A DNA stretch of 64,000 nt from Thermoanaerobaculia bacterium (GTDB taxonomy: Bacteria; Acidobacteriota; Thermoanaerobaculia; Gp7-AA8). Numbering within the stretch: position 1 is the stretch's first letter; each line of letters opens with the position of its first letter. The notes below the pieces were generated by a model. The model ran no database searches and was not told the DNA's origin. It saw only the letters and a list, made by a program, of their open reading frames with translations. The position numbers and the translations under genes are program-made. Shown in pieces: positions 7,554-57,125 of this stretch. The stretch spans positions 319,412 through 383,411 of the forward strand of contig JAXDGL010000008.1 in NCBI GenBank assembly GCA_034665065.1. Reading direction: 5' to 3'.

Positions 7554-8345
7554 GTGGACGCACTCCGCACGCTCTATCGCTATCGCCAGCTCATCGCGGC
7601 GCTCACCGCGCGCGATCTGAAGGCGCGGTACCGCGGCTCGATCCTTGGCTTTTTTTGGTCGCTGGCCAATCCGCTGCTCCTTCTGGCCGTCTATACGATC
7701 GTCTTCACCTTCTTTTTTCCGTCGAGTCTCATTCATCCCTATCCGTTGTTTCTCTTCTCCGGAATCCTGCCGTGGACCTTTTTCTCGGCGGCGGTACTCG
7801 AGTCGACGTCGGCGATCTCTTCGAACGCGGGGCTGATCAAAAAGGTGATGTTTCCCGCGGAGGCGCTGCCCTTGGTGACGGTGGCATCGCATCTGGTTCA
7901 CTTCGTTCTCGCCATGCCCGTCCTTTTGCTGGCCACGCTTGGCTTCGCGCTGCATGGCGACATTACGATCACCATGAACATCCTACTGGTGCCGCTGCTC
8001 ATGATTCTGCAGACGCTCTTCGTCGCCGGCATCGCCATGACCGTGTCGTCCGCGTCAGTGCTCTTTCGCGATCTGCGCGACATCCTCACGAACCTGATGC
8101 AGCTCGGATTCTTCGTGACGCCGATCCTCTTTCTGGTCGACCGCGTTCAGTCGCGCCCTCTCCGTGCGCTGCTGCGGCTCAACCCGATGACGCCCTTCGT
8201 CGTCTCGTATCAGGACGTGCTTTTCTTCGGACATCTGCCGGGCATCGCCGACATTCTGCTGATCCTCACGTACGCATTCGGATCGCTGGCGATCGGCGTG
8301 ATGGTGTTCGGCAGGCTGCGCGACACGCTGGCCGAGGCAATCTAG
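7554..8345 (+). CDS. ABC-2 type transporter permease (Wzm/KpsM-like polysaccharide exporter)
   Basis: LRTLYRYRQLIAALTARDLKARYRGSILGFFWSLANPLL is the typical ABC-2 N-terminus, followed by six predicted TM helices. The ORF track starts at 7377 inside the repeat region; the GTG at 7554 is the likely start. Confidence 0.8.
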   Translation: MDALRTLYRYRQLIAALTARDLKARYRGSILGFFWSLANPLLLLAVYTIVFTFFFPSSLIHPYPLFLFSGILPWTFFSAAVLESTSAISSNAGLIKKVMFPAEALPLVTVASHLVHFVLAMPVLLLATLGFALHGDITITMNILLVPLLMILQTLFVAGIAMTVSSASVLFRDLRDILTNLMQLGFFVTPILFLVDRVQSRPLRALLRLNPMTPFVVSYQDVLFFGHLPGIADILLILTYAFGSLAIGVMVFGRLRDTLAEAI

Positions 8346-8406
8346 CGGGCGCAACTGATCGCCGACGACTCACAGGAAGACCGCAACTCAAGCGGCTTCC
8401 GCGTCG

Positions 8407-8606
8407 AAAATGTTGAATGTTGAATGTTGAATGTTGAATGTTGAGTGTTGATCGTGCGCCGCCATCCTCCGTTCGTTCAACACTCAATACTCATCATTTA
8501 CAATTTAATGAATCCAACATTTAATATCCATCATTTAACATACAATATTAACATCCGCCATTTAACACTCAACATTTAACATTCAACATTCAACATTCAA
8601 ATGTTC
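8407..8606. repeat. AT-rich imperfect palindrome built from TTGAATG heptamer arrays
   Basis: 5x tandem TTGAATG (8409-8445) and its reverse complement CATTCAA x3 (8580-8606) flank a ~120-bp AT-rich core carrying repeated CATTTAACA-like motifs. Sharply lower GC than surrounding DNA. Confidence 0.8.
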
Positions 8607-8749
8607 GCTGAACCAGAATCATCGTTCTGCGCGAAGATTCTCAGCATCCAAGGTACAGCCGGCCTGGAAGACGCTTCGGCGCCGGCAACGGAACGACGAA
8701 CCCCCGCTCCCCACACCCATCCCGTATCATGTCGCGCCGCGGAGGTCGA

Positions 8750-10372
8750 ATGTCCAGACGTCTCCTCTGTTTCTCGTTCTTACTTCTTCTCGTTTCGCTT
8801 CCGGCTCTTGCCGACTCGCCGGGCGTGTACGCAATCACGGGTGGCACGATCCACCCGGCCAGCGGGCCGGAGATTGCGAACGGCGCGGTGATCATTCGCG
8901 ACGGTCTGATCGAATCGGTGGGCTACGCGGTGGCCATCCCGCTCGACGCCACGGTCATCGACGTGAAAGGGGGCCACATCTACCCCGGCCTCATCGATGC
9001 GATGACGTCGCTCGGTTTTCCAAGTGCGAGCGCGCCACGACGACGCGGTGGTGGGGGAGCAGCGGCGCGCGCGCCGGCAGCCGATCCGTTGCCCGAAACG
9101 GGGCCGTCGTTTCTCGCCTTTCGCGAGGCGAAGCTCTCCGACGATGACGTCGACGCCAAGCGCGCCACCGGCGTGCTGACGATCGTCACCGCACCTTCGT
9201 TCGGCATTTTTAACGGCCAGGCCGTCGCGCTGAACCTCGGCGGCGGGACGATGGAATCGCGCGTCGTTCGCAATCCCGCATGGCAGCAGATCTCGTTCAA
9301 TCCGCGGCCCGCGTGGACGTATCCCGATTCGCTGATGGGCGTGATCTCGTACATCAAACAGACGCTGCTCGACGCGCAGCAGCACGCGGTTGCGAAGTCG
9401 ATTTACGACAAGAATCCGGCCGGCTACAAACGTCCTGACGAGAGTCCATCGCTCGACGCCCTCGGCTCCGTGCTGCGCCGCGACGTGCCGCTCCTCTTCG
9501 TCGCCGACAGCGAGTTGATGATCCGTCGCGCCGAAGCAATCGCCAAAGAGTTCAACGTGCGGCTGATCATCGCCGGCGCGCGGCAGGGCTACAAGATCGC
9601 CGATGAGTTGAAATCGATCGGCGCGCCCGTGCTGGTCTCGACGAAATGGCCCGTCGCGCCGGCGGAGAAGGAGGATCGCGACGAGCAACCGCTGCGCGTC
9701 ATCCGCGACCGTCAGCTCGCGCCGACCACTCCCGCGGTGCTGGCAAAGAGCGACGTGCTCTTCGCGCTCGTCAGCGGTGCCGGGAAGACCGGCGACTTCA
9801 TTCCCGGGATACGCAAAGCGATCGAGAACGGGTTGTCTGCGGACGACGCGTTGCGCGCCACGACGATCAACGCAGCGAAGATCGCCGGCATCGACCGGCA
9901 GCTCGGATCGCTCGATCGCGGCAAGATCGCGAACATCGTCATCACCGACAAGCCGATCTTCGACAAGGAAGCGAAGGTGAAACGGATCTTCATCGACGGC
10001 CGCGAATCGAAAGTAGCTGTCGAGGATGAGAAAAAGAAACCGAGTGGCGGGACGGCGACGGCGGGAGCATCGGCGTCGAGCATCGACGGCAGTTGGAGCT
10101 TCATCGTCAAGACCACCGCCGGCGACGCGAACATCTCCGCGACTCTGCGCGTCGAGAATGGCCAGATCAGCGGCACGTTCTCCGGCGACCGCGGCTCCGG
10201 CAGCATCGGCAACGGAACGTTCGACGGCACGACGGTCGAGTTTTCGATCGCCGGCCGCGGCAAGGAAGAGGCGGGCGACTGGCTGTTCCACGGCACGCTG
10301 CACGGCGCGAACATGGAGGGAACTGTAGCGACGACGCTCGGCACGTTCCCGTTCACGGGGAGTAAGAAATGA
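8750..10372 (+). CDS. secreted amidohydrolase-family protein (paralog 1, metal-binding HxH replaced)
   Basis: Signal peptide [21 protein letters not shown]. Amidohydrolase fold motifs ([17 protein letters not shown]; C-terminal [13 protein letters not shown]). The canonical HxH after the GLID motif is absent. Confidence 0.8.
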
Positions 10373-14007: not shown

Positions 14008-14169
14008 GCCCTGGACATACTCCAAGGGCGGTACCATGCAAGAATCTCAGTAGAATCAACGACTTAGTAAATCGTGCGCGATTTGAACGTCGCGAAATCA
14101 GACAGAGTGTCCTGATATCGTACGGTGAGAGATTCGCCTGATCGCGTGTATAGTCCGCCCAGTTCTTTC

Positions 14170-14335
14170 CCAATTTCTCTGAGTCAGTGAACGGGAAGCC
14201 GGTGTGATGCCGGCGCGGCCCCCGCCACTGTGACCGGCGACAACTCGCTCCACGATAGCCACTGCATCTACCGATGCGGGAAGGCGGCGCGACGAGGATG
14301 ACCCGGAAGCCAGGAGACCGGCTGGCTCGGAACCC
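14170..14335 (+). ncRNA. cobalamin (AdoCbl) riboswitch
   Basis: GGGAAGCCGGTGTGATGCCGGCGCGGCCCCCGCCACTGTGACCGG … GGGAAGGCGG … B12 box GAAGCCAGGAGACCGGC, directly upstream of the btuB-like receptor. Confidence 0.8.
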
Positions 14336-14371
14336 ACTTTTGATTCTCTTCTTCGGAGGGAAGGAGTCGTC

Positions 14372-38240: not shown

Positions 38241-38334
38241 GTCCGCAGATTACGCAGATGTTCGCAGATGAAGATTGATTCCAATCTGCGTCAATCTGGG
38301 TAGTGGTCTAGTTTGACCGAAGGTTTGTAACATG
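38241..38334. repeat. left terminal inverted repeat of the 5.9-kb lower-GC island
   Basis: CCGCAGATTACGCAGATGTTCGCAGATGA…CTGGGTAGTGGTCTAGTTTGAccgaaggtTTGTAACATG. The reverse-complement partner lies at 44038-44176. Confidence 0.7.
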
Positions 38335-38622
38335 TTTGCGGGTACGCCATCACTACCTCAATTCACGGGAAAGCTCTTCGTTCGCGAGTCTGACGAACGT
38401 CTCGACTACGACACTCCGCAGTTGATCCGCGACGCGCTGCACGATCTGGCCTTCGATGTCGTGGTAGAGCCCCTGCTGTTCTTCGTCATCGCCCCGGCCA
38501 GTTCATGATTCCGGTTTCAGAGCAGGCGTCAGTCATCGCTCCAACATTTGCCGAAAGACGAAACCATTCGTCCGCGAATCTCTCGCCGTGCTCGCGCGTG
38601 ATCACATCGACGATATCCAAGC

Positions 38623-38883
38623 TCATTCCGTCTCCCTGCTCTCCAGAACGGCGACATAGACCGCTTCGTCAGCTCGCGACAGCTCAAACAGTTCCACGAT
38701 GTAGACGGGACGAGAGAGCATTTCGGAAGCGGTTTCCGCAAGGGCGATCATGAGGCGGCGTGTTGGCTCACACTCACCCCCGCGCAACCGCCGAAACTGC
38801 GAAGGGCTGATCCCGGCGCGCTTCGCGAACACAGAACCCCTGACACCACACGCCCGCATGAAACGCATCGAACCGCGTCGCAC
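38623..38883 (-). CDS. XRE-like HTH regulator (divergent from 39004 gene)
   Basis: VFAKRAGISPSQFRRLRGGECEPTRRLMIALAE resembles an HTH_3 helix-turn-helix. Confidence 0.45.
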   Translation of the reverse strand: MRRGSMRFMRACGVRGSVFAKRAGISPSQFRRLRGGECEPTRRLMIALAETASEMLSRPVYIVELFELSRADEAVYVAVLESRETE

Positions 38884-39003
38884 GGCGTTCCTTTATGCGG
38901 CGCTCCCGGCGCTCTGGCATCGGCCACGTTTTCCTTTGCACACCGATAGCATGTCACACTCATAGCATGACTAGCAACAGGAACATGGACGCACACTCAA
39001 AGC

Positions 39004-39231
39004 ATGGCTGTTCGTCCGGTCGAGAAGTTCGCCGCGCACCTTCGCGAGTTGCGCGAGAAGCGTGGACTCTCGCAGACGAAGCTCGCGGAGCTGGCCGGGC
39101 TCAATCGGAACTACGTCGGCGACGTGGAACGCGGTCGCCGGAATCCATGCTTCGATAACATCATCAAGCTGGCCGAGGGGTTGAACGTCTCGCCATCGGA
39201 ACTCTTCCGGCCATTTGACAAACGGCGGTAG
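39004..39231 (+). CDS. XRE-family HTH transcriptional regulator
   Basis: LRELREKRGLSQTKLAELAGLNRNYVGDVERGRRNPCFDNIIKLAEGLNVSPSELF is the canonical HTH_3. Confidence 0.8.
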   Translation: MAVRPVEKFAAHLRELREKRGLSQTKLAELAGLNRNYVGDVERGRRNPCFDNIIKLAEGLNVSPSELFRPFDKRR

Positions 39232-39249
39232 CGAACCGATACTCCCTTT

Positions 39250-39516
39250 ATGCCAAAGGGGTCAAGCAAGCGCCCGAAGAAGCGCGAGGACGAAGCGCAG
39301 GCCGCCGTCCGCGTCATGAACACGATCGCCGCGAGGTCTGAGGCGGACGCGCTCGATGATGCACCGGTTGAGATCACTGACGCCATGCGCGCCGCTGCCG
39401 CCGCGTTCGGGCGCATGGGCGGAAAGATTGGCGGACCGGCGCGAGCGGCGAGCATGAGCGCGAAGCGGCGCTCCGAGATCGCCAAGAAAGCTGCGCGTGC
39501 GCGTTGGCAAAGGTAG
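39250..39516 (+). CDS. hypothetical small basic protein
   Basis: 88 aa. Lys/Arg-rich ends. 18 nt downstream of the XRE gene. Confidence 0.4.
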   Translation: MPKGSSKRPKKREDEAQAAVRVMNTIAARSEADALDDAPVEITDAMRAAAAAFGRMGGKIGGPARAASMSAKRRSEIAKKAARARWQR

Positions 39517-39656
39517 CCCGCTCGGATCAAGGCAAGCGAGGTTACCGGAGTCGTTAGGGTGAGTGCTAAAGTGTAGGCGAGCAAAGACACGAAAACCGGC
39601 TGGCAGGTCGGTCGTGCGAAGTTACGTGAGGGGCAATCGAGCGTGGAGATCTTGCC

Positions 39657-40247
39657 ATGCCGATGTTTGCTTGTCAAAGCAGTCCAGGATCATCAAGTCA
39701 ACCGATTGCAGCGTACGGGTTCCCAATGCCGCTCGCCGAAAGTGATATCAAAGAGCTGTTGAGCTTTACCTACATGCGGGCCATCGCCGCAAGGGCTGGG
39801 TTCCGCGTCAATCATCCGTACCCTGACCGCCAACATGATGACTTGCAAATCGACTCGTGCGGTCGATTAGAGCCGGACGGCTGGAGTGCAGCGCGCATCG
39901 ATTTTCAGGTCCGAGCAACAACCACGATCCCCCTTGCTGATGGCGGCGAATTCGGATTCCAGGTCGAAAGGTCTCTGTATGATGACCTTCGGGATGATAG
40001 GCGCTGCGCACCTTTGTTGCTGGCTGTCTTCATAATGCCGCCGAACCCCGAGCAATGGCTGAGCGCTACTGCCGCCGAACTGATCACACGCCACTGCGCC
40101 TATTGGGGCAACATTAAGGGCGCGCCGCCTATCGAGGCAGAGTCTCGCGTCCTACACGTCAAACGCGCCAACACACTCACGGCGGCTTCGCTAACCGATT
40201 TGATGAGGATCGCCGGACGGCGGCAGGAGATTGGCGATGCTTTATAA
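39657..40247 (+). CDS. DUF4365-like hypothetical protein
   Basis: 196 aa. Lower-GC codon usage. Loose resemblance to the DUF4365 family (recalled). Confidence 0.5.
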   Translation: MPMFACQSSPGSSSQPIAAYGFPMPLAESDIKELLSFTYMRAIAARAGFRVNHPYPDRQHDDLQIDSCGRLEPDGWSAARIDFQVRATTTIPLADGGEFGFQVERSLYDDLRDDRRCAPLLLAVFIMPPNPEQWLSATAAELITRHCAYWGNIKGAPPIEAESRVLHVKRANTLTAASLTDLMRIAGRRQEIGDAL

Positions 40248-41367
40248 AGGTCTGCCGGTCGACTCCCTGAAGCATGTCAATTACATTGCCGTGCGCAATT
40301 ACATCAAGAGCCGTGGCTGGACCAGGATCGGTAACGGCACAGGCACGGCATTGTTTCGCTCTCCGAGCGATCCAGATGCTGAAGTACTCTTGCCTCTGTC
40401 GAAGATGTTCTCTGACTATTCGATGCGCATAGGAGATCTGATCCTAGCGGTGTCGGAAATCGAACAGATTCCCCCGGTACGGTTGATGGCTGATCTACTG
40501 TTGCCGCCCAGCGATATATTGCGTTTCAGTGTTCAAGCGACGGACACGTCTAGCGGTACCGTGCAATTCGACAGCGGCATGGATTTGTACGCCGGTATTC
40601 GCACAGCAATGCTAAGTTCTGCGAGAGCCGCCGAACATCCCGAGAAATATTTCGAGCGCCTAAAGGATTCGGACGACTTTGTGTCGCAGTGCCGACTTGG
40701 ACAGACGGAGTTCGGCAGTTTTACCGCCACGTTTGTGTGTCCTGTTGAGGCGCTGCCTGAAATCGACGTGCAGCCTGATCTCTTCGCTGATTTAGCACAC
40801 GCGCCGACTGCTAGAGAACCATTCGCGCGCAAAGTCACGCGGACACTCATGCAGGCTGTCGCTATCGTCGCTAACGCCATTGCAAATGATACCGTGGCTG
40901 ATTTGATTGCCTCGACAGGGCCGGTTAGCGCGAATCTATGTGAAGCGTTGTTAAGGATGGAGCCGGTACAGGACGGTCAATTGACAGTCGCCTCAAGCTG
41001 GGCGCGTGTATTGATTCCACCGGCCGATACCGCTGCTTATGTTGTAATACCAAAAGAATACTTCGGTCCCATTGCGGAGATCGCGACTGCGCTTCGTCCT
41101 TCAAAGGAACCAAAGGATGCACCTTTCGTAGGCAAGGTCATTACGTTGGCCGGACAGGAGCACGATGGCGAGCTGTCCGGTCCAGTGACACTTTACATCT
41201 TGACGGATGACGAGCCGGTCCGCGCTCGGGTGAGTCTGAGCCACGATGACTATATGAAAGCTTACGACGCGCACGGTAGAATGACGGCGGTTTCTATTAC
41301 CGGGAAATTGAAGCGCGCCTCACGATCGGCTGAGATCATCGATTACACCGATTTCAAACTTGTTTAG
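40231..41367 (+). CDS. hypothetical protein (partner of 39657 gene)
   Basis: 378 aa. Overlaps the upstream gene by 17 nt. No recognisable motifs. Confidence 0.55.
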   Translation: MAMLYKGLPVDSLKHVNYIAVRNYIKSRGWTRIGNGTGTALFRSPSDPDAEVLLPLSKMFSDYSMRIGDLILAVSEIEQIPPVRLMADLLLPPSDILRFSVQATDTSSGTVQFDSGMDLYAGIRTAMLSSARAAEHPEKYFERLKDSDDFVSQCRLGQTEFGSFTATFVCPVEALPEIDVQPDLFADLAHAPTAREPFARKVTRTLMQAVAIVANAIANDTVADLIASTGPVSANLCEALLRMEPVQDGQLTVASSWARVLIPPADTAAYVVIPKEYFGPIAEIATALRPSKEPKDAPFVGKVITLAGQEHDGELSGPVTLYILTDDEPVRARVSLSHDDYMKAYDAHGRMTAVSITGKLKRASRSAEIIDYTDFKLV

Positions 41368-41586
41368 TAGCTCGCTATCCACGTCCTGTCCCTCCCATAT
41401 CGATTCCGCTTTCGGTGTGCGTTGGTCCCTGTTGGTCCAAGGCCGGTCCAGCCACCTGCGAGAGCGTGGCGTGACGCACCGACAGCAGCCGCCGTGTGTT
41501 ACGATCCTGTCGGGCGGTAGTGGCGACTGATCATCGTTCCGACGCCGGACAGCTCGCGCCCGGTCCGCCCGAAGTGCGTTCCTAGC

Positions 41587-42435
41587 GTGGGCAGGAGCGC
41601 GAGCGTGAGCGTGAAACGACGGCGGAAGAGTGCGCGCGCAGACGAGTCTCTCGCCGATTTACAAAGCACCGATCCCTTCGCAGATATCGACTTTATCTCC
41701 TCGCAGCTATGCAATGAGCGATCAGGATGGAGCGACCCGCCCGCCGAAGACATCGTTACTCTGCAAGTGTCAAGGACGGTCCAAGCCTCCTTCAGCACTC
41801 GCGCGTTAGTTGCCGGCTTAATGGTCGGATTTGACGACATTCTTAGCACTTCGCCACGCGGTTCCGAGTTCGAAGCATCACTCCGCGAGTTAATGAGTCG
41901 CCGCCCCGACCTCTCGGAGAGCGAAGCGCGCACAGCCCGCCTAAAGCTGCACGCAGCCGCTGTCCAAATTTTCACCTCCGAGGCGGCCAGAGCATTTGAG
42001 CAGTTGATTCCACAGTTGCTGAGCCTCGCTGTCACCGTTGCCGTCGCCGCAGCAGAGCCGATTGCGGCTGAAGCCGCGCAGGGGTATCAGCCTCGGGACA
42101 TTAAGACCGGCGAGAGAATACGTTTCACGTTTCCCAAAGAGAGAAAGATCGAGTGGCGCGAGGGAATCTTGCGAGACACAGAGAGTGAAATCCGGAAGAT
42201 CCTCGGGAAGCTTAAAAGCTCTCCAGGGGCAAAAGGTACCGCAACGCGCGACCTTCACGCCTTTCAGCGGCGCGAGGAAGTATTTGCTCGTGAGAAAGCG
42301 AGCGGCAAGAGCGACCGACTCGCGTGGACGGCGGCGAAGGCTACCGTGCAGAACGAATTCCCCAAGCTACGCAAAGAAGCTACCTATGAAACTGCTATGA
42401 GGCGCGGTAGGCGGATCGCTCCCCCGAAGAAATAG
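41587..42435 (+). CDS. hypothetical protein
   Basis: 282 aa. Competes with the antisense ORF 41499..42035. The plus-strand ORF is favoured by length and codon bias. Confidence 0.4.
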   Translation: MGRSASVSVKRRRKSARADESLADLQSTDPFADIDFISSQLCNERSGWSDPPAEDIVTLQVSRTVQASFSTRALVAGLMVGFDDILSTSPRGSEFEASLRELMSRRPDLSESEARTARLKLHAAAVQIFTSEAARAFEQLIPQLLSLAVTVAVAAAEPIAAEAAQGYQPRDIKTGERIRFTFPKERKIEWREGILRDTESEIRKILGKLKSSPGAKGTATRDLHAFQRREEVFAREKASGKSDRLAWTAAKATVQNEFPKLRKEATYETAMRRGRRIAPPKK

Positions 42436-42718
42436 AGGAGAGTAATTCATCGCCCCATCTAATCCCGCCCGCACAATTCTTGCCCCCATCGAAAGCAAAG
42501 AATCTTCTATCCGATATTGCTCGCGCAGAAATGGCGTGCTTCACTCAGCTCCACAAGCCGAAGCCTGTTTGCGGCGGGGGGAAAGGAGTTGATGTGCATG
42601 AGAAGACTGCAAGCCGTCCGCGTTCTGGTCACCGACGCGGAGAGCGGCCAGAAACACGAACGCCGTCTCGGGTAGTTGCTTGACCGGCAACCGAGACGGC
42701 GGGTGGTGATCCTGCGAT

Positions 42719-42795
42719 GCTCCCGTAGCTCAATCTGGACAGAGCGGCGGTCTACTAAACCGACGGTGTGGGTCCGAGTCCCACCGGGAGCGCCA
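42719..42795 (+). tRNA. tRNA-like gene with atypical anticodon (parses as ACU)
   Basis: Cloverleaf: acceptor GCTCCCG/CGGGAGC, D-arm GCTC-AATCTGGACA-GAGC, anticodon arm GCGGT-CTACTAA-ACCGA (G27·A43 mismatch), T-arm GTGGG-TCCGAGT-CCCAC, discriminator G, CCA. The short variable loop is inconsistent with Ser. Confidence 0.55.
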
Positions 42796-42906
42796 ATTCT
42801 ATTCGCACGCGGGCTGCCGGTCCAGCGGTAGCTCGATATTGTTACATCTTCAATCTTCACCCCTCAAGCATTGACGTTCTGACCCCTCAAGCATATATTT
42901 TCTTAC

Positions 42907-43791
42907 ATGAACAAACTCTCCAGTGACGCCCGCGCCCGCATCATCATGGCTCTGATCGAAGGCAACTCGATCGCGTCTACGTGCCGGATGACGGGCGCGG
43001 CAAAGATGACGGTGCTGAGTCTCATCCGCGAAGTCGGCACCGCATGCGCCGCGTTCCATGACGCGGTTGTGCGCGACCTCGCAACGGAGCGCGTGCAGGC
43101 CGACGAAGTATGGTCGTTCTGCGGCATGAAGCAGAAGAACGTCCCTGCCGACTTGCAAGAGACGGTCGGCATCGGCTCGATCTGGACGTGGACGGCGCTT
43201 GATGCGGACACGAAGCTGATGATTTCTTGGCTGGCGAGTAACCGTAGTGCGGAAGCTGCGAACGCGCTCCTCGCTGACCTCAAGTCCCGCACGTCGGCAT
43301 CGAACGAAATCCAAATCTTCTCGGATGGACTGGCGTAGTACATCGATGCGGTCCGGCAGAGCTTCGCACCCGGTGAAGCGAACCTTGGTCAAGTCGTGAA
43401 AACCTACGAAACCAGTAGTCCGCAGCCGGGCATGAATCCGAACAGTGCGGCGAGTAGGTATTCACCGGGACGCCTGCTCTCGATCGAGAAAACTGCACCT
43501 CTCGGCACGCCGGACATGAAGCACGTTTCGACCTCGTTCATGGAGCGGTTCAACCTCACGCTCCGCATGCAGAACCGGCGCTTCACGCGCCTGACGAATG
43601 GCTTCTCAAAGAAGTTCGAGAACCATTGCCACATGCTTGCAATGACGATGGTTTACTACAACTTCTGCCGGAAGCATCAGTCACTGAAGGGCCGGACGCC
43701 CGCGATGGCGGCGGGACTTACCGAGTATCGTTGGACGGCGGCGGATCTGCTGTCGCTGGAGATGTGGAGCGCGGCGGAAGCGGCAGCCTAG
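42907..43791 (+). mobile_element. IS1-family DDE transposase interrupted by a single in-frame TAG
   Basis: Recalled similarity to E. coli IS1 InsA HTH (ARIIMALIEGNSIASTCRMTG) and InsB (DEVWSFCGMKQKN; …IFSDGLA*YIDAV…; ERFNLTLRMQNRRFTRLTNGFSKKFENHCHMLAMTMVYYNF). ORFs 42907-43338 and 43396-43791 share a frame; the TAG at 43336-43338 is the only interruption. Confidence 0.75.
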
Positions 43792-44037
43792 CGCAGCCGC
43801 TTGCGCAGCTCACGCCGTATCTGATCCGCTATTTCGTCATCAGACTTCCCATGGTCTACGACGAACTCCACCAACGGATCACGGAGGATATGCACGTGCC
43901 ATTCGTTATTCGTTTGGCTGCCAACGATGCTCCATAGCGCGGTTACGCCGAATTCACCCTCGACAATAGGTTTCGCGATGGCCGTCAATTTGGATTGCAT
44001 GATTGTGGAGGGGTCGCTGGCCCCCGTTCCCTACCCC

Positions 44038-44176
44038 ATGTTACAACTTCCACTTCAAACTAGACCACTACCCAGATGTGTGCAAATGGACGGTTTCATC
44101 TGCGCCGATGTTGGTCCGCGACACAGGTGTATGCAGAGGAAGGGCTTATCTGCGAACATCTGCGTCATCTGCGGAT
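44038..44176. repeat. right terminal inverted repeat of the island
   Basis: CATGTTACAActtccactTCAAACTAGACCACTACCCAG…ATCTGCGAACATCTGCGTCATCTGCGG is the reverse complement of 38241-38334, with a ~50-nt indel. Confidence 0.7.
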
Positions 44177-44865
44177 CAAACTGGTTCGGCGATGAACCGG
44201 TAGCCAACCCATGGCTCGGTCACGATGTATTGCGGCTCGGAGGGATTGGGCTCGATTTTCTTACGCAGTGAGCTCATGTGAACGCGCACGGTGTCGGCGC
44301 TCGTGCTTGGAGCGGAGCGCCAGACGCGGGCGATGATCTGCTCGATGAACATCGGCTTCCCCGCGTTTGTGGCGAGCAGCTCCAGCAGTGAGAATTCGGT
44401 CGGGGTGAGGCGCACTTCGCGGTCGTCCTGCACAACTCGGCGGCGTTCGAGGTCGATGGTCAGGTCCGGAAACGCGAGAGTGGTCGCGGTGGGCGTCGTG
44501 GTCCGGCGGAGATGGGCGCGGACGCGGGCCAGGAGCTCGGCCATGGAGAAGGGCTTGGTCACGAAGTCGTCGGCGCCGAGGTCGAGGGCTCGGACTTTGT
44601 CGGCATCGGCGCCGCGGACGGAGAGCACGATGATGGGTATTCGCGATGTTGCGCGAATGCCGGCGATCAAATCGAATCCGTCCGAGCGCGGCATGGCAAG
44701 ATCGGTCAGTACGAGATCGGGCGCCTGCGATTGAAACGCGCCTATCGCTTCGCTTCCGTCGGCCGCGGTCGATGTCGTGTAGCCGGCTGCGCGGAGTTCT
44801 TTCGACAGCGATTCGCGAATGGCGGGATCGTCGTCGGCGATGAGAATCACGTTCGAGATGGTCAT
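44176..44865 (-). CDS. OmpR/KdpE-family response regulator
   Basis: Receiver domain (ILIADDDPAIRESL…DLVLTDLAMP) and winged-helix output (RLTPTEFSLLELLATNAGKPMFIEQII…VWG). Confidence 0.9.
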   Translation of the reverse strand: MTISNVILIADDDPAIRESLSKELRAAGYTTSTAADGSEAIGAFQSQAPDLVLTDLAMPRSDGFDLIAGIRATSRIPIIVLSVRGADADKVRALDLGADDFVTKPFSMAELLARVRAHLRRTTTPTATTLAFPDLTIDLERRRVVQDDREVRLTPTEFSLLELLATNAGKPMFIEQIIARVWRSAPSTSADTVRVHMSSLRKKIEPNPSEPQYIVTEPWVGYRFIAEPV

Positions 44866-57027: not shown

Positions 57028-57125
57028 GGAGGCGAATGGGGTCTGGTGGCTCCCGCGGTCTTCAAAACCGTTGTTTCGGCGCGGAAGCGTCGAAGGGTCG
57101 GTTCGATTCCGACGCGCCTCCGCCA
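57028..57125 (+). tRNA. selC: tRNA-Sec (selenocysteine, anticodon UCA)
   Basis: 98 nt. Acceptor GGAGGCG(A)/GCGCCTCC, 6-bp D-stem with 4-nt loop (GGGGTC-TGGT-GGCTCC), anticodon loop CTTCAAA (UCA), long variable arm, T-arm GTCGG-TTCGATT-CCGAC, discriminator G, CCA. Confidence 0.8.

Follow-up and report, generated by a model that had tools for sequence, protein, structure and literature searches.

What is a tRNA gene whose anticodon lies outside the standard bacterial decoding set doing just upstream of a transposase gene that is broken by a single stop codon? The pair lies in a 64,000-nucleotide (nt) stretch of a Thermoanaerobaculia contig (JAXDGL010000008.1), referred to here as the window, and a first-pass annotation of this DNA had taken the simplest explanation to be a decayed tRNA next to a nonsense-mutated insertion sequence. 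Comparison with other copies leads us to a different view of the tRNA. It is a fixed passenger of a repeat-bounded transposon of 4.7-6.3 kb, and we judge it probable that it serves as an element-encoded Watson-Crick decoder of AGU that is coupled to translation of the transposase; its expression, charging, use and gating we infer from patterns of conservation and codon usage.

Results

An intact tRNA under selection

ARAGORN calls two tRNAs in the window, one of which is the 77-nt gene considered here (Table 1), labelled tRNA-Ser with anticodon act. The Rfam tRNA model finds it in the same register at 59.4 bits (gathering score 29, E = 2.5e-10, 74 nt), and direct reading gives GCUCCCG UA GCUC AAUCUGGACA GAGC G GCGGU CUACUAA ACCGA for the 5' part and CGGU GUGGG UCCGAGU CCCAC CGGGAGC G CCA for the 3' part. 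Within the anticodon loop CUACUAA, direct reading leaves ACU (positions 34-36, at 42753-42755) as the sole parse with U33 and a purine at position 37, and on this parse all three approaches agree with the first-pass annotation, whose other statements about the sequence (a cloverleaf, an encoded CCA and a short variable arm) hold as well. No register gives CUA with U33 and R37, which bears out its doubt about direct amber suppression; on this ground, and because the TAG in the neighboring gene is not conserved, we rejected an amber suppressor or pyrrolysine tRNA.

The gene has A20, C35, U36, A37, G73 and a variable region of 4 nt, and its acceptor (7 bp), D (4 bp), anticodon (5 bp) and T (5 bp) stems form a covarying cloverleaf. 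A 7-nt anticodon loop, U33 and a purine at 37 are features of a canonical elongator tRNA, and the pattern YU-NCU-AA is found in all 12 copies. Two other features depart from that canon: the T-loop, UCCGAGU, has C at position 55 where T54-U55-C56 is standard, and ACU itself is not an anticodon of standard bacterial decoding. The only noncanonical pair in the Rfam alignment is the mismatch G27.A43. Folding energy is unremarkable (z = -0.70), leaving covariation, rather than thermodynamics alone, as the discriminator.

A scan for the anticodon arm that left the anticodon free and took one genome from each species led to a locus from a Thermoanaerobaculia metagenome-assembled genome (L003), where the ACU tRNA and its upstream hairpin recur together with an intact transposase gene. 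Further copies came from contigs encoding graded transposase homologues of 63-91% identity. When 10 distinct NCU tRNA copies were aligned and scored against the cloverleaf, 97.6% of cells were paired, 11 of 21 pairs had changed on both sides, and compensatory changes appeared in all four stems. The covariation score was 0.495 against 0.130 in shuffles, with 0 of 500 shuffles reaching the observed value, and in slid controls, where partners were moved by 1-3 columns, only 34-49% of cells paired. Apart from L040 and L101, which have GCU, the loop YU-ACU-AA is invariant in the family.

The window and L003 tRNAs are identical at 75 of 77 positions, while the surrounding 1.2 kb is 83% identical. 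Several copies share the 27:43 mismatch and C55 (C55 in the window, L003, L086, L092, L093 and L101, with the normal UUC in L089, L091, L104, L031 and L040), which marks them as family traits and not as decay. The first-pass annotation had proposed looking elsewhere in the genome for copies of the same backbone with a normal anticodon. Across lineages of the element the backbone does recur: of 11, nine carry the ACU tRNA, one carries a GCU tRNA (L101), and one has none within 8 kb (L102/L103). The suggestion of decay fails on these counts, as the same ACU tRNA is found in the same type of transposon at unrelated sites with compensation in every stem. The 77-nt gene thus encodes an intact tRNA that selection maintains, rather than a host gene in decay.

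A transposase gene frozen for AGU

Serine columns fixed as AGT were first seen when codons were listed in the transposase alignment. The window gene contains 8 AGT and 2 AGC codons at a third-position GC content (GC3) of 0.77, with AGT in frame at residues 6, 38, 111, 114, 170, 171, 180 and 183 (codons at 42922, 43018, 43237, 43246, 43414, 43417, 43444 and 43453). Transposase genes of this kind have 8-10 AGU per ~292 codons, half of them within one 14-codon stretch, and 4 or 5 of the AGT codons fall inside a clade-specific insertion, TSSPQPGMNPNSAASRY.

The bias belongs to the reading frame. Across the transposase genes of the elements, AGT and AGC number 93 and 21 in frame, 45 and 85 in frame 2, and 25 and 22 in frame 3; being confined to the reading frame, the bias acts on decoding and not on a DNA motif, and we rejected avoidance of AGC as a DNA motif for that reason. 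It also belongs to one gene. In the source gene calls of six elements, transposase genes have 53 AGT and 11 AGC codons (30.5 AGT per 1000 codons), compared with 32 and 105 (4.9 per 1000) in the other genes of the same elements and 40 and 239 (2.5 per 1000) in flanking host genes. By Fisher tests that ignore shared ancestry, the transposase genes differ from the other element genes at p = 9e-16 and from host genes at p = 6e-26. The AGT:AGC ratio is 69:18 in eight core genes, 120:379 in 77 distant relatives without the tRNA, and 64:220 in 20 long open reading frames (ORFs) of the window that lie outside the element and were taken as host genes. At L028, where the same terminal-repeat core stands beside a transposase gene with no tRNA in 2.7 kb upstream, there are 1 AGT and 7 AGC codons. 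The T-fraction of AGY is 0.79, against 0.02-0.47 for the 15 other NNY pairs of the same genes, whose GC3 is 0.76-0.84.

Finally, the bias is tied to particular sites. AGT is present at Ser111 and Ser183 in 11 of 11 genes, at Ser114 in 10 and at Ser170 in nine, while the 14 invariant serine columns written with TCN use a mean of 2.9 different codons and none is uniform. The transposase gene is thus frozen for AGU by a bias that is specific to frame, gene and site. Of the link between tRNA and transposase that had been suspected from the window, the part that runs through the amber codon is lost, and a link seems to exist through AGU sense codons instead.

A separate observation concerns the codon that follows the fixed AGT183 (window 43456-43458). 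It encodes arginine; L093 uses CGG there, and the other 10 of the 11 genes use one of the rare codons AGG and AGA. The resulting conserved rare-codon pair AGU-AGR precedes an invariant YSP motif.

An ordinary knockout of the window transposase

The transposase frame begins with an ATG 111 nt from the 3' end of the tRNA and has 294 codons. Translation confirmed that it is broken by a single in-frame stop, TAG at 43336-43338 (codon 144). In the closest homologues the corresponding column holds Y, and otherwise H, Q, L, A, D, E or S (19 aligned). In nucleotide sequence, this codon is TAC (Tyr) in the four intact copies nearest to the window copy and a sense codon in all 10 others, the more distant ones having CAC, CTC, AGT, GCG or GAA. 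The reading of the TAG as a plain nonsense mutation is upheld by this comparison: it is an ordinary TAC->TAG knockout of Tyr144. The window copy has also changed Ser138 to Phe (TCC->TTC, 43318-43320) next to the catalytic SDG, at a residue that is Ser in 19 of 19 aligned homologues. With TAC->TAG and Ser138Phe together, the window transposase is dead, and its tRNA is intact.

Two further ideas about TAG codons were dropped. Programmed read-through was rejected since the in-frame stop is not conserved among homologues. A preference for TAG stops inside the elements was suggested by the window element, in which seven of 11 genes end in TAG, and was given up when six elements gave 24 of 61 inside against 15 of 59 outside (p = 0.12).

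The motifs DEVWSF, SDG and ERFNLTLR are all found in the translation, and among more than 100 intact homologues of ~291 amino acids (aa), several are called 'IS1 family transposase' by their sources. The protein collection yielded thousands of homologues, the best 120 of which are 62-91% identical and ~291 aa long. Scores from hidden Markov models (HMMs) fall below the family cut-offs (NCBIfam transpos_IS1, 48.8 bits against 100; Pfam DDE_Tnp_IS1, 22.1 against 24.1), and by this measure the transposase is only a distant IS1 relative. The IS1 family is defined by insA and insB' joined by a -1 frameshift, a compact length of ~0.8 kb and inverted repeats beside the transposase gene. Here the transposase is a single ORF of ~292 codons without the insA/insB' arrangement, and 50 relatives were free of inverted repeats up to 450 nt from the transposase gene. 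A compact insertion sequence was rejected on that result, the ends being 4.7-6.3 kb apart.

A transposon that carries its tRNA

The window element is ~5.9 kb long (about 38243-44174) and is bounded by terminal inverted repeats that consist of the core GGTAGTGGTCTAGTTTGA and then TTGTAACA; the ends of these elements are composites of ~90 nt with subterminal repeats. The window has exactly two copies of the core, inverted relative to each other (38299 on the forward strand and 44072 on the reverse strand; 0 expected by chance), and L003 also has two. A pair of cores bounds a 4.7-6.3 kb element in seven lineages (the window, L003, L085, L086, L089, L092 and L093); the scan found a single core in L104, none in L101 and L102, and no match for L091. 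The subterminal repeats beyond the core are element-specific, and those of the CGCAGAT type are common to the window and L086, which occupy different chromosomal sites, so that these repeats belong to the element. BLASTN of the window against L003 aligned 42581-43784 at 83% and 38635-39507 at 78%, along with short inverted matches that are the terminal repeats. On the right, the element abuts the stop codon (44176-44178) of a kdpE-like response-regulator gene.

Elements of this type stand at different chromosomal sites in the 11 lineages, which are Thermoanaerobaculia where the record names the organism, and their flanking host genes differ. L085 (GCA_017883205.1, contig JADGNZ010000003.1) is an example with an intact module of tRNA and transposase gene. 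The usual order from left to right is a divergent pair of cro/cI-like helix-turn-helix (HTH) genes, a gene of ~88 aa, variable cargo, the tRNA, the transposase gene and sometimes further cargo (see Table 1 for the window). An HTH_3 gene of 75-87 aa is at the same place in most copies (none was called in L086-L088 or L101), and a gene of 81-92 aa follows it in most others. In L089, 1.6 kb separates the tRNA from the transposase gene, and the two are on opposite strands. Cargo varies by copy, with Fic, DUF3800, P63C, SecB-like plus HTH, or Trypsin_2 in place of the candidate anti-phage system PDC-M02 of the window, so that transposons of this kind shuttle defense- or toxin-like genes. The window is part of a 453-kb metagenome contig from JGI, and the exact product of its 282-aa cargo ORF is not on record.

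Several other origins of the arrangement were considered and set aside. With 3 mismatches allowed, neither tRNA half was found a second time in the 64 kb, in direct or complementary form; with no duplicate half and no integrase, and with the tRNA inside the inverted repeats, we rejected the tRNA as an island integration (att) site or primer-binding partner. An insertion preference beside host tRNA genes was likewise rejected for the core clade, in which the tRNA is inside the repeats and moves with the element; it may apply to L052 and L056. A viral origin was discarded after the terminal-repeat core had been found at 4 loci in the viral contigs scanned, none of them with a tRNA. One viral contig (L097, 8837-9098) has two inverted cores ~260 bp apart, and this pair may be a miniature nonautonomous derivative of the element.

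Two observations about the surroundings of these elements are recorded here. Across the loci L092, L093-L096, L101, L102 and L104 (about 4.4-10.7 kb each), five lineages have the element next to a pair of lexA-like (LexA_DNA_bind plus Peptidase_S24) and HTH_31 genes, with a GGDEF gene, often with CsgG, on the other side; past the lexA-like pair, four of the five (all but L102) also have tsaD and valS. This neighborhood is either one ancient, vertically inherited insertion or a preferred target site. The other observation concerns UUA-anticodon tRNAs with a long variable arm, resembling ochre suppressors, at L091 (3584-3670, with C33) and L056 (1016-1189), directly upstream of the tRNA(ACU) or of the transposase gene. 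A tRNA(UGC) lacking the alanine identity pair G3:U70 is present in L056 as well, and further nonstandard tRNAs travel with this transposase family.

Table 1. Features of the window element and its surroundings.
Feature	Position	Strand	Evidence or remark
Left transposon end	38243-38335	+	Outer CGCAGAT-type subterminal repeats at 38243-38272; outer boundary approximate
Left-end core GGTAGTGGTCTAGTTTGA	38299-38316	+	Repeat scan
Left-end inner part TTGTAACATG	38326-38335	+	Repeat scan
Small ORF, weak HTH_31, part of divergent cro/cI-like pair	38623-38883	-	Pfam E 6.8e-4; equivalents in other copies
75-aa HTH_3 (Cro/C1-type) core gene	39004-39231	+	Pfam HTH_3 E 1e-17
88-aa basic protein (MPKGSSKRPKK...), core gene	39250-39516	+	Near-identical ORF in L003 (5181-5471); no Pfam or PADLOC match
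Variable cargo, PDC-M02 A (DUF4365) and B (378 aa)	39657-41367	+	PADLOC E 1.6e-37 and E 3.6e-101; Pfam DUF4365
282-aa cargo ORF	41587-42435	+	No Pfam or PADLOC match; source gene call here is 204 aa
Hairpin upstream of tRNA, 11-bp arms, 19-nt loop	42661-42701	+	Inverted repeat, 100% complementary
tRNA gene, anticodon ACU	42719-42795	+	ARAGORN; Rfam; family covariation; family model R1, 88.7 bits
Terminator-like hairpin 3' of tRNA	42810-42835	+	Terminator scan
Transposase promoter region	42859-42904	+	TTGACG-17-TATATT at 42871-42899; promoter scan, 10/12 matches
IS1-like DDE transposase pseudogene	42907-43791	+	Translation; alignments; codon counts
70-aa ORF between transposase gene and right end, cargo	43788-44000	-	Called in source contig; no Pfam or PADLOC match
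Right transposon end	44030-44174	-	Outer CGCAGAT repeats at 44146-44174
Right-end inner part CATGTTACAA	44036-44045	+	
Right-end core GGTAGTGGTCTAGTTTGA	44055-44072	-	

Elsewhere in the window are a cobalamin riboswitch (14168-14340, 113 bits) and a selenocysteine tRNA (57028-57121, 71 bits), both ordinary chromosomal features that are unlinked to the transposon.

Signals around the tRNA and transposase genes

The hairpin upstream of the tRNA is present in L003 with compensatory changes (CGCCGTCTCGG/CCGAGACGGCG against GGCCATCTCGG/CCGAGATGGCC) and absent in more distant copies. Downstream, L003 has a hairpin with a T-run at the same place as the terminator-like hairpin of the window, and none was seen in L086 or L093. 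The transposase promoter occupies the same place in L086 and L093, and two direct repeats, ACCCCTCAAGCAT, overlap its -35 and -10 elements. These repeats, which other copies conserve, resemble operators and give the promoter a repressible appearance. Just upstream, a GTTACA motif (42838-42860) resembles the inner part of the terminal repeat.

Scans of the window, L086 and L093 found no consensus promoter before the tRNA. In several copies, such as L092, the tRNA begins a few nt after the stop codon of the upstream cargo gene, which suggests that it is cotranscribed with the upstream cargo operon. With a tRNA borne on that operon and a transposase gene that has its own promoter, production of the transposase would need both.

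Which amino acid the tRNA would carry

The tRNA-Ser label given by ARAGORN follows from the anticodon only. Seryl-tRNA synthetase (SerRS) in bacteria recognizes its tRNA mainly by the long variable arm; here the variable region is 4-5 nt in all copies, and charging by SerRS is thus not expected by known rules. The copies lack G3:U70, G-1 and a fixed A73, making the alanyl, histidyl and leucyl synthetases (AlaRS, HisRS and LeuRS) unlikely. The identity set of arginyl-tRNA synthetase (ArgRS) in E. coli and T. thermophilus is A20, C35, and U36 or G36, and it is the sole anticodon-reading synthetase that takes C35 with U36. All 12 copies have A20, C35 and U36, and the D-loop has GG-A, yet with a single G before the A in L085. 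The discriminator varies among G, C, A and U, and the acceptor stem is also freely variable, as suits ArgRS. When the family model was run over ~650 kb of loci, the best canonical tRNA was tRNA-Arg(UCG) at 74.5 bits, followed by Thr at 72.6 and, far lower, Trp at 36; A20 is found in the host tRNA-Thr as well and is hence not exclusive to Arg. In bacteria, A34 is almost exclusive to tRNA-Arg(ACG) (PMC11415595). BLAST was less informative as to isotype, giving nothing against E. coli genomes and a mixture of Lys, Trp, Leu, Arg and Asn among phage tRNAs.

One search hit deserves separate mention. A viral tRNA(CUA) on a 350-kb viral contig (L002, 2246-2322) has an anticodon arm, including G27.A43, identical to that of a Saccharibacteria tRNA-Trp(CCA) (L004, 148-222). 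It is probably a Trp-derived amber suppressor of a large phage and unrelated to the window tRNA. Kinship of the window tRNA with tRNA-Trp, suggested by the anticodon arm that it shares with L002 and L004, was rejected as a product of the search pattern, given the family-model score for tRNA-Trp.

The meaning of the codon was approached from the protein side with a Codetta-like test, which asks what residues homologues without the tRNA have at columns where core genes use AGT. Control codon groups recovered their own residue (TCN, Ser 43%; CGN, Arg 66%; GGN, Gly 68%). The AGT columns gave G 18%, E 11%, K 11%, D 11% and S 8%, and BLOSUM scoring put Ser best at 0.21, about equal to Glu at 0.19, which speaks against Arg. 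Individual sites divide. Residue 38 (column 41) fits Arg, being K or R in 71 of 77 distant homologues (92%), CGN in 3 of 11 genes and R in 31 of 117 close homologues. Against Arg, residue 111 (column 118) is Gly in 75 of the 77 distant homologues, and among the 117 close homologues positions 111, 170, 180 and 183 are never R or K, with G, T or A in the rare cases of change; at position 114 the substitutes are N, G, I and one K. Arginine on a GCU tRNA would, moreover, also enter at the common AGC codons.

In the nucleotide data for 11 genes, replacement by a Ser synonym never occurs at 111 or 183, and 114 changes only to AAT. The pattern at these three positions would fit either retention of the codon as such or ambiguous decoding. 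Taken together, the data support no single alternative amino acid at AGU: identity rules predict Arg, and the codon context looks Ser-like.

Discussion

A proposed translational key to transposition

We propose the following sequence of events. Host genes, with their high GC content, almost never use AGU, and the element concentrates this codon in its transposase gene. Its tRNA(ACU) would read the AGU codons of the transposase mRNA by Watson-Crick pairing, and synthesis of the transposase, or the exact protein made, would come to depend on the element's own tRNA; production of the enzyme would then be under a second control, at translation, besides that of transcription. If ArgRS charges the tRNA, as identity rules suggest, AGU would become ambiguous between Ser and Arg.

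A number of points weigh against this proposal. Host tRNA-Ser(GCU) can read AGU by wobble, so that dependence on the element tRNA cannot be absolute. L102/L103 has an intact transposase gene (8001-8876) with 8 AGT and 1 AGC and, with the family covariance model run unfiltered, no tRNA within 8 kb on either side; there the tRNA may be supplied by another copy or have been lost. L101, whose tRNA is GCU, still has 7 AGT and 1 AGC. The distant transposases of L031 (ACU) and L040 (GCU) show no AGT enrichment, and an attempt to generalize the pairing of tRNA and codon to L052 (Leu-UAG), L056 (UGC and UUA) and L031 was abandoned when no matching codon enrichment was found. The 11 transposase genes also share ancestry, so that the Fisher p-values overstate independence; retention of AGT amid synonymous turnover, and against strong GC3 pressure, is the stronger argument.

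Alternative explanations

A sharper version of the same proposal is that AGU is recoded or ambiguously decoded, with host ArgRS arginylating the tRNA and Arg competing with Ser-tRNA(GCU) at AGU. The outcome would be Ser and Arg isoforms of the transposase, for instance an active form and an inhibitor, in a ratio set by the level of the tRNA, and sense-codon recoding would serve as a transposition switch. In IS1 it is the frameshift that normally sets the ratio of inhibitor to transposase, and these single-ORF relatives are without it. The ArgRS set is kept while the acceptor stem and N73 vary, AGT at 111, 114 and 183 is kept against both Ser synonyms and Arg codons, as if it had a meaning of its own, and residue 38 alternates between AGT and CGN at a column rich in K and R. 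We nevertheless hold this version as possible but doubtful, as the Codetta-like test gave no Arg signal, column 118 is overwhelmingly Gly, proteome-wide Ser->Arg errors would be costly, especially with the GCU variants of L040 and L101, and L102 has no tRNA.

Short of any special tie to the transposase, the tRNA could be a general codon-supply passenger, like the tRNAs of phages, that eases translation of the element's lower-GC, AGN-richer genes or is of benefit to the host. The window element does have a lower GC content (0.56-0.59 against about 0.62) and is richer in AGT, AGA and AGG than host genes, and element genes other than the transposase are slightly richer in AGT than host genes (T-fraction 0.23 against 0.14, p = 0.03). 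The enrichment, however, is ~6-fold stronger in the transposase than in these other genes and is site specific, and a tRNA without the long variable arm for SerRS is unlikely to supply Ser; we think this explanation improbable.

Very little weight goes to the idea that the tRNA is no decoder but a signal for RNase P/Z processing or insulation between the operon and the transposase mRNA, or a decoy for anticodon nucleases or defense systems. Such a role would suit the place of a tRNA ahead of the transposase start, at a distance of 96-125 nt in 10 of 11 lineages, the presence of other tRNAs (Leu-UAG, UUA, UGC) in the same place in the distant relatives L052 and L056, the defense-like cargo and the lack of a consensus promoter before the tRNA. 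It would leave the invariant anticodon and the in-frame AGT bias unexplained and does not fit L089, where the tRNA is 1.6 kb off on the other strand; the codons matching the L052 and L056 tRNAs are not enriched, and those cases may be a different phenomenon.

A decayed host tRNA that chances to adjoin a nonsense-mutated insertion sequence, with no function and no link, is scarcely credible: the TAG is indeed a plain nonsense mutation, and the 27:43 mismatch, C55, nonstandard ACU and ordinary folding energy could be read as decay, but at least nine lineages have the ACU tRNA within this repeat-bounded element, at loci that are unrelated, differing flanking genes exclude assembly copies of one locus, the window has no duplicated tRNA fragment of the sort an integration site would leave, and stems compensated throughout, a tRNA better conserved than its flanks and 'defects' that are family traits all run counter to it.

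Implications

Our preferred explanation, an AGU decoder coupled to transposase translation, would have consequences beyond this locus. If the tRNA is arginylated, it would amount to a natural ambiguity of a sense codon maintained by a selfish element. For annotation, the rule would be that 'tRNA-Ser(ACT)' calls beside IS1-like genes in Acidobacteriota are not pseudogenes. The candidate defense systems carried as cargo also have a bearing on how defense genes move.

Comparison with known systems

Members of the IS1 family, including those with passenger genes, resemble the element in their terminal inverted repeats and in a DDE transposase to whose InsB the present one is weakly similar. The element differs in its length of 4.7-6.3 kb, its ~90-nt composite ends, its cro/cI-like module, cargo and tRNA, its single transposase ORF and its HMM scores below the cut-off. 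As in phages and plasmids that carry codon-matching tRNAs, an element-borne tRNA goes with over-representation of the matching codon; those tRNAs are canonical isoacceptors for many genes, whereas here the anticodon is noncanonical and the enrichment is confined to one gene.

Phage suppressor tRNAs come closer, in that a nonstandard tRNA of a mobile element affects the translation of some of the element's own genes. Borges et al. (2022) are said to have described suppressor tRNAs in stop-codon-recoded phages, where they reportedly exert temporal control over a subset of genes. Those suppressors read stop codons, and their targets have in-frame stops; in the present case the codon is a sense codon, the genes look intact under the standard code, the carrier is a transposon of ~5 kb, and the TAG in the window is unrelated.

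A mismatch between anticodon and body is known from tRNA-ProX, which with ProRSx is found in Streptomyces and relatives as one of the mistranslating tRNAs and has A34 (PMC11415595; PMC10404621). Like it, the element tRNA is a natural bacterial tRNA with A34 and an anticodon that does not match the identity of its body. tRNA-ProX has a dedicated synthetase isoform, A33 and further unusual features, whereas the element tRNA has no coencoded synthetase, a normal U33 and a codon bias in one adjacent gene.

The nearest likeness in logic is with bldA of Streptomyces, the tRNA-Leu(UAA) that reads TTA: a high-GC host, a rare codon concentrated in certain regulatory genes and one dedicated tRNA (the UUA system is described in PMC10732093). 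In bldA the tRNA is chromosomal, canonical and the sole decoder of UUA; the element tRNA is transposon-borne, has a nonstandard anticodon and has the element's own transposase as its target. Unlike bldA, it lacks identity elements for the amino acid of its codon, and the host also reads AGU by wobble. In the literature that was searchable, neither a transposon-borne ACU tRNA nor a transposase gene biased toward AGU came to light, and by our comparison none of these systems has a noncanonical sense anticodon on a transposon together with a codon bias that only the transposase gene shows. Mobile-element tRNAs are usually viewed as helpers of codon usage and rare-codon control of the bldA kind as a chromosomal curiosity; if the coupling proposed here is functional, it would be a new way for a transposon to control or privatize synthesis of its transposase by decoding.

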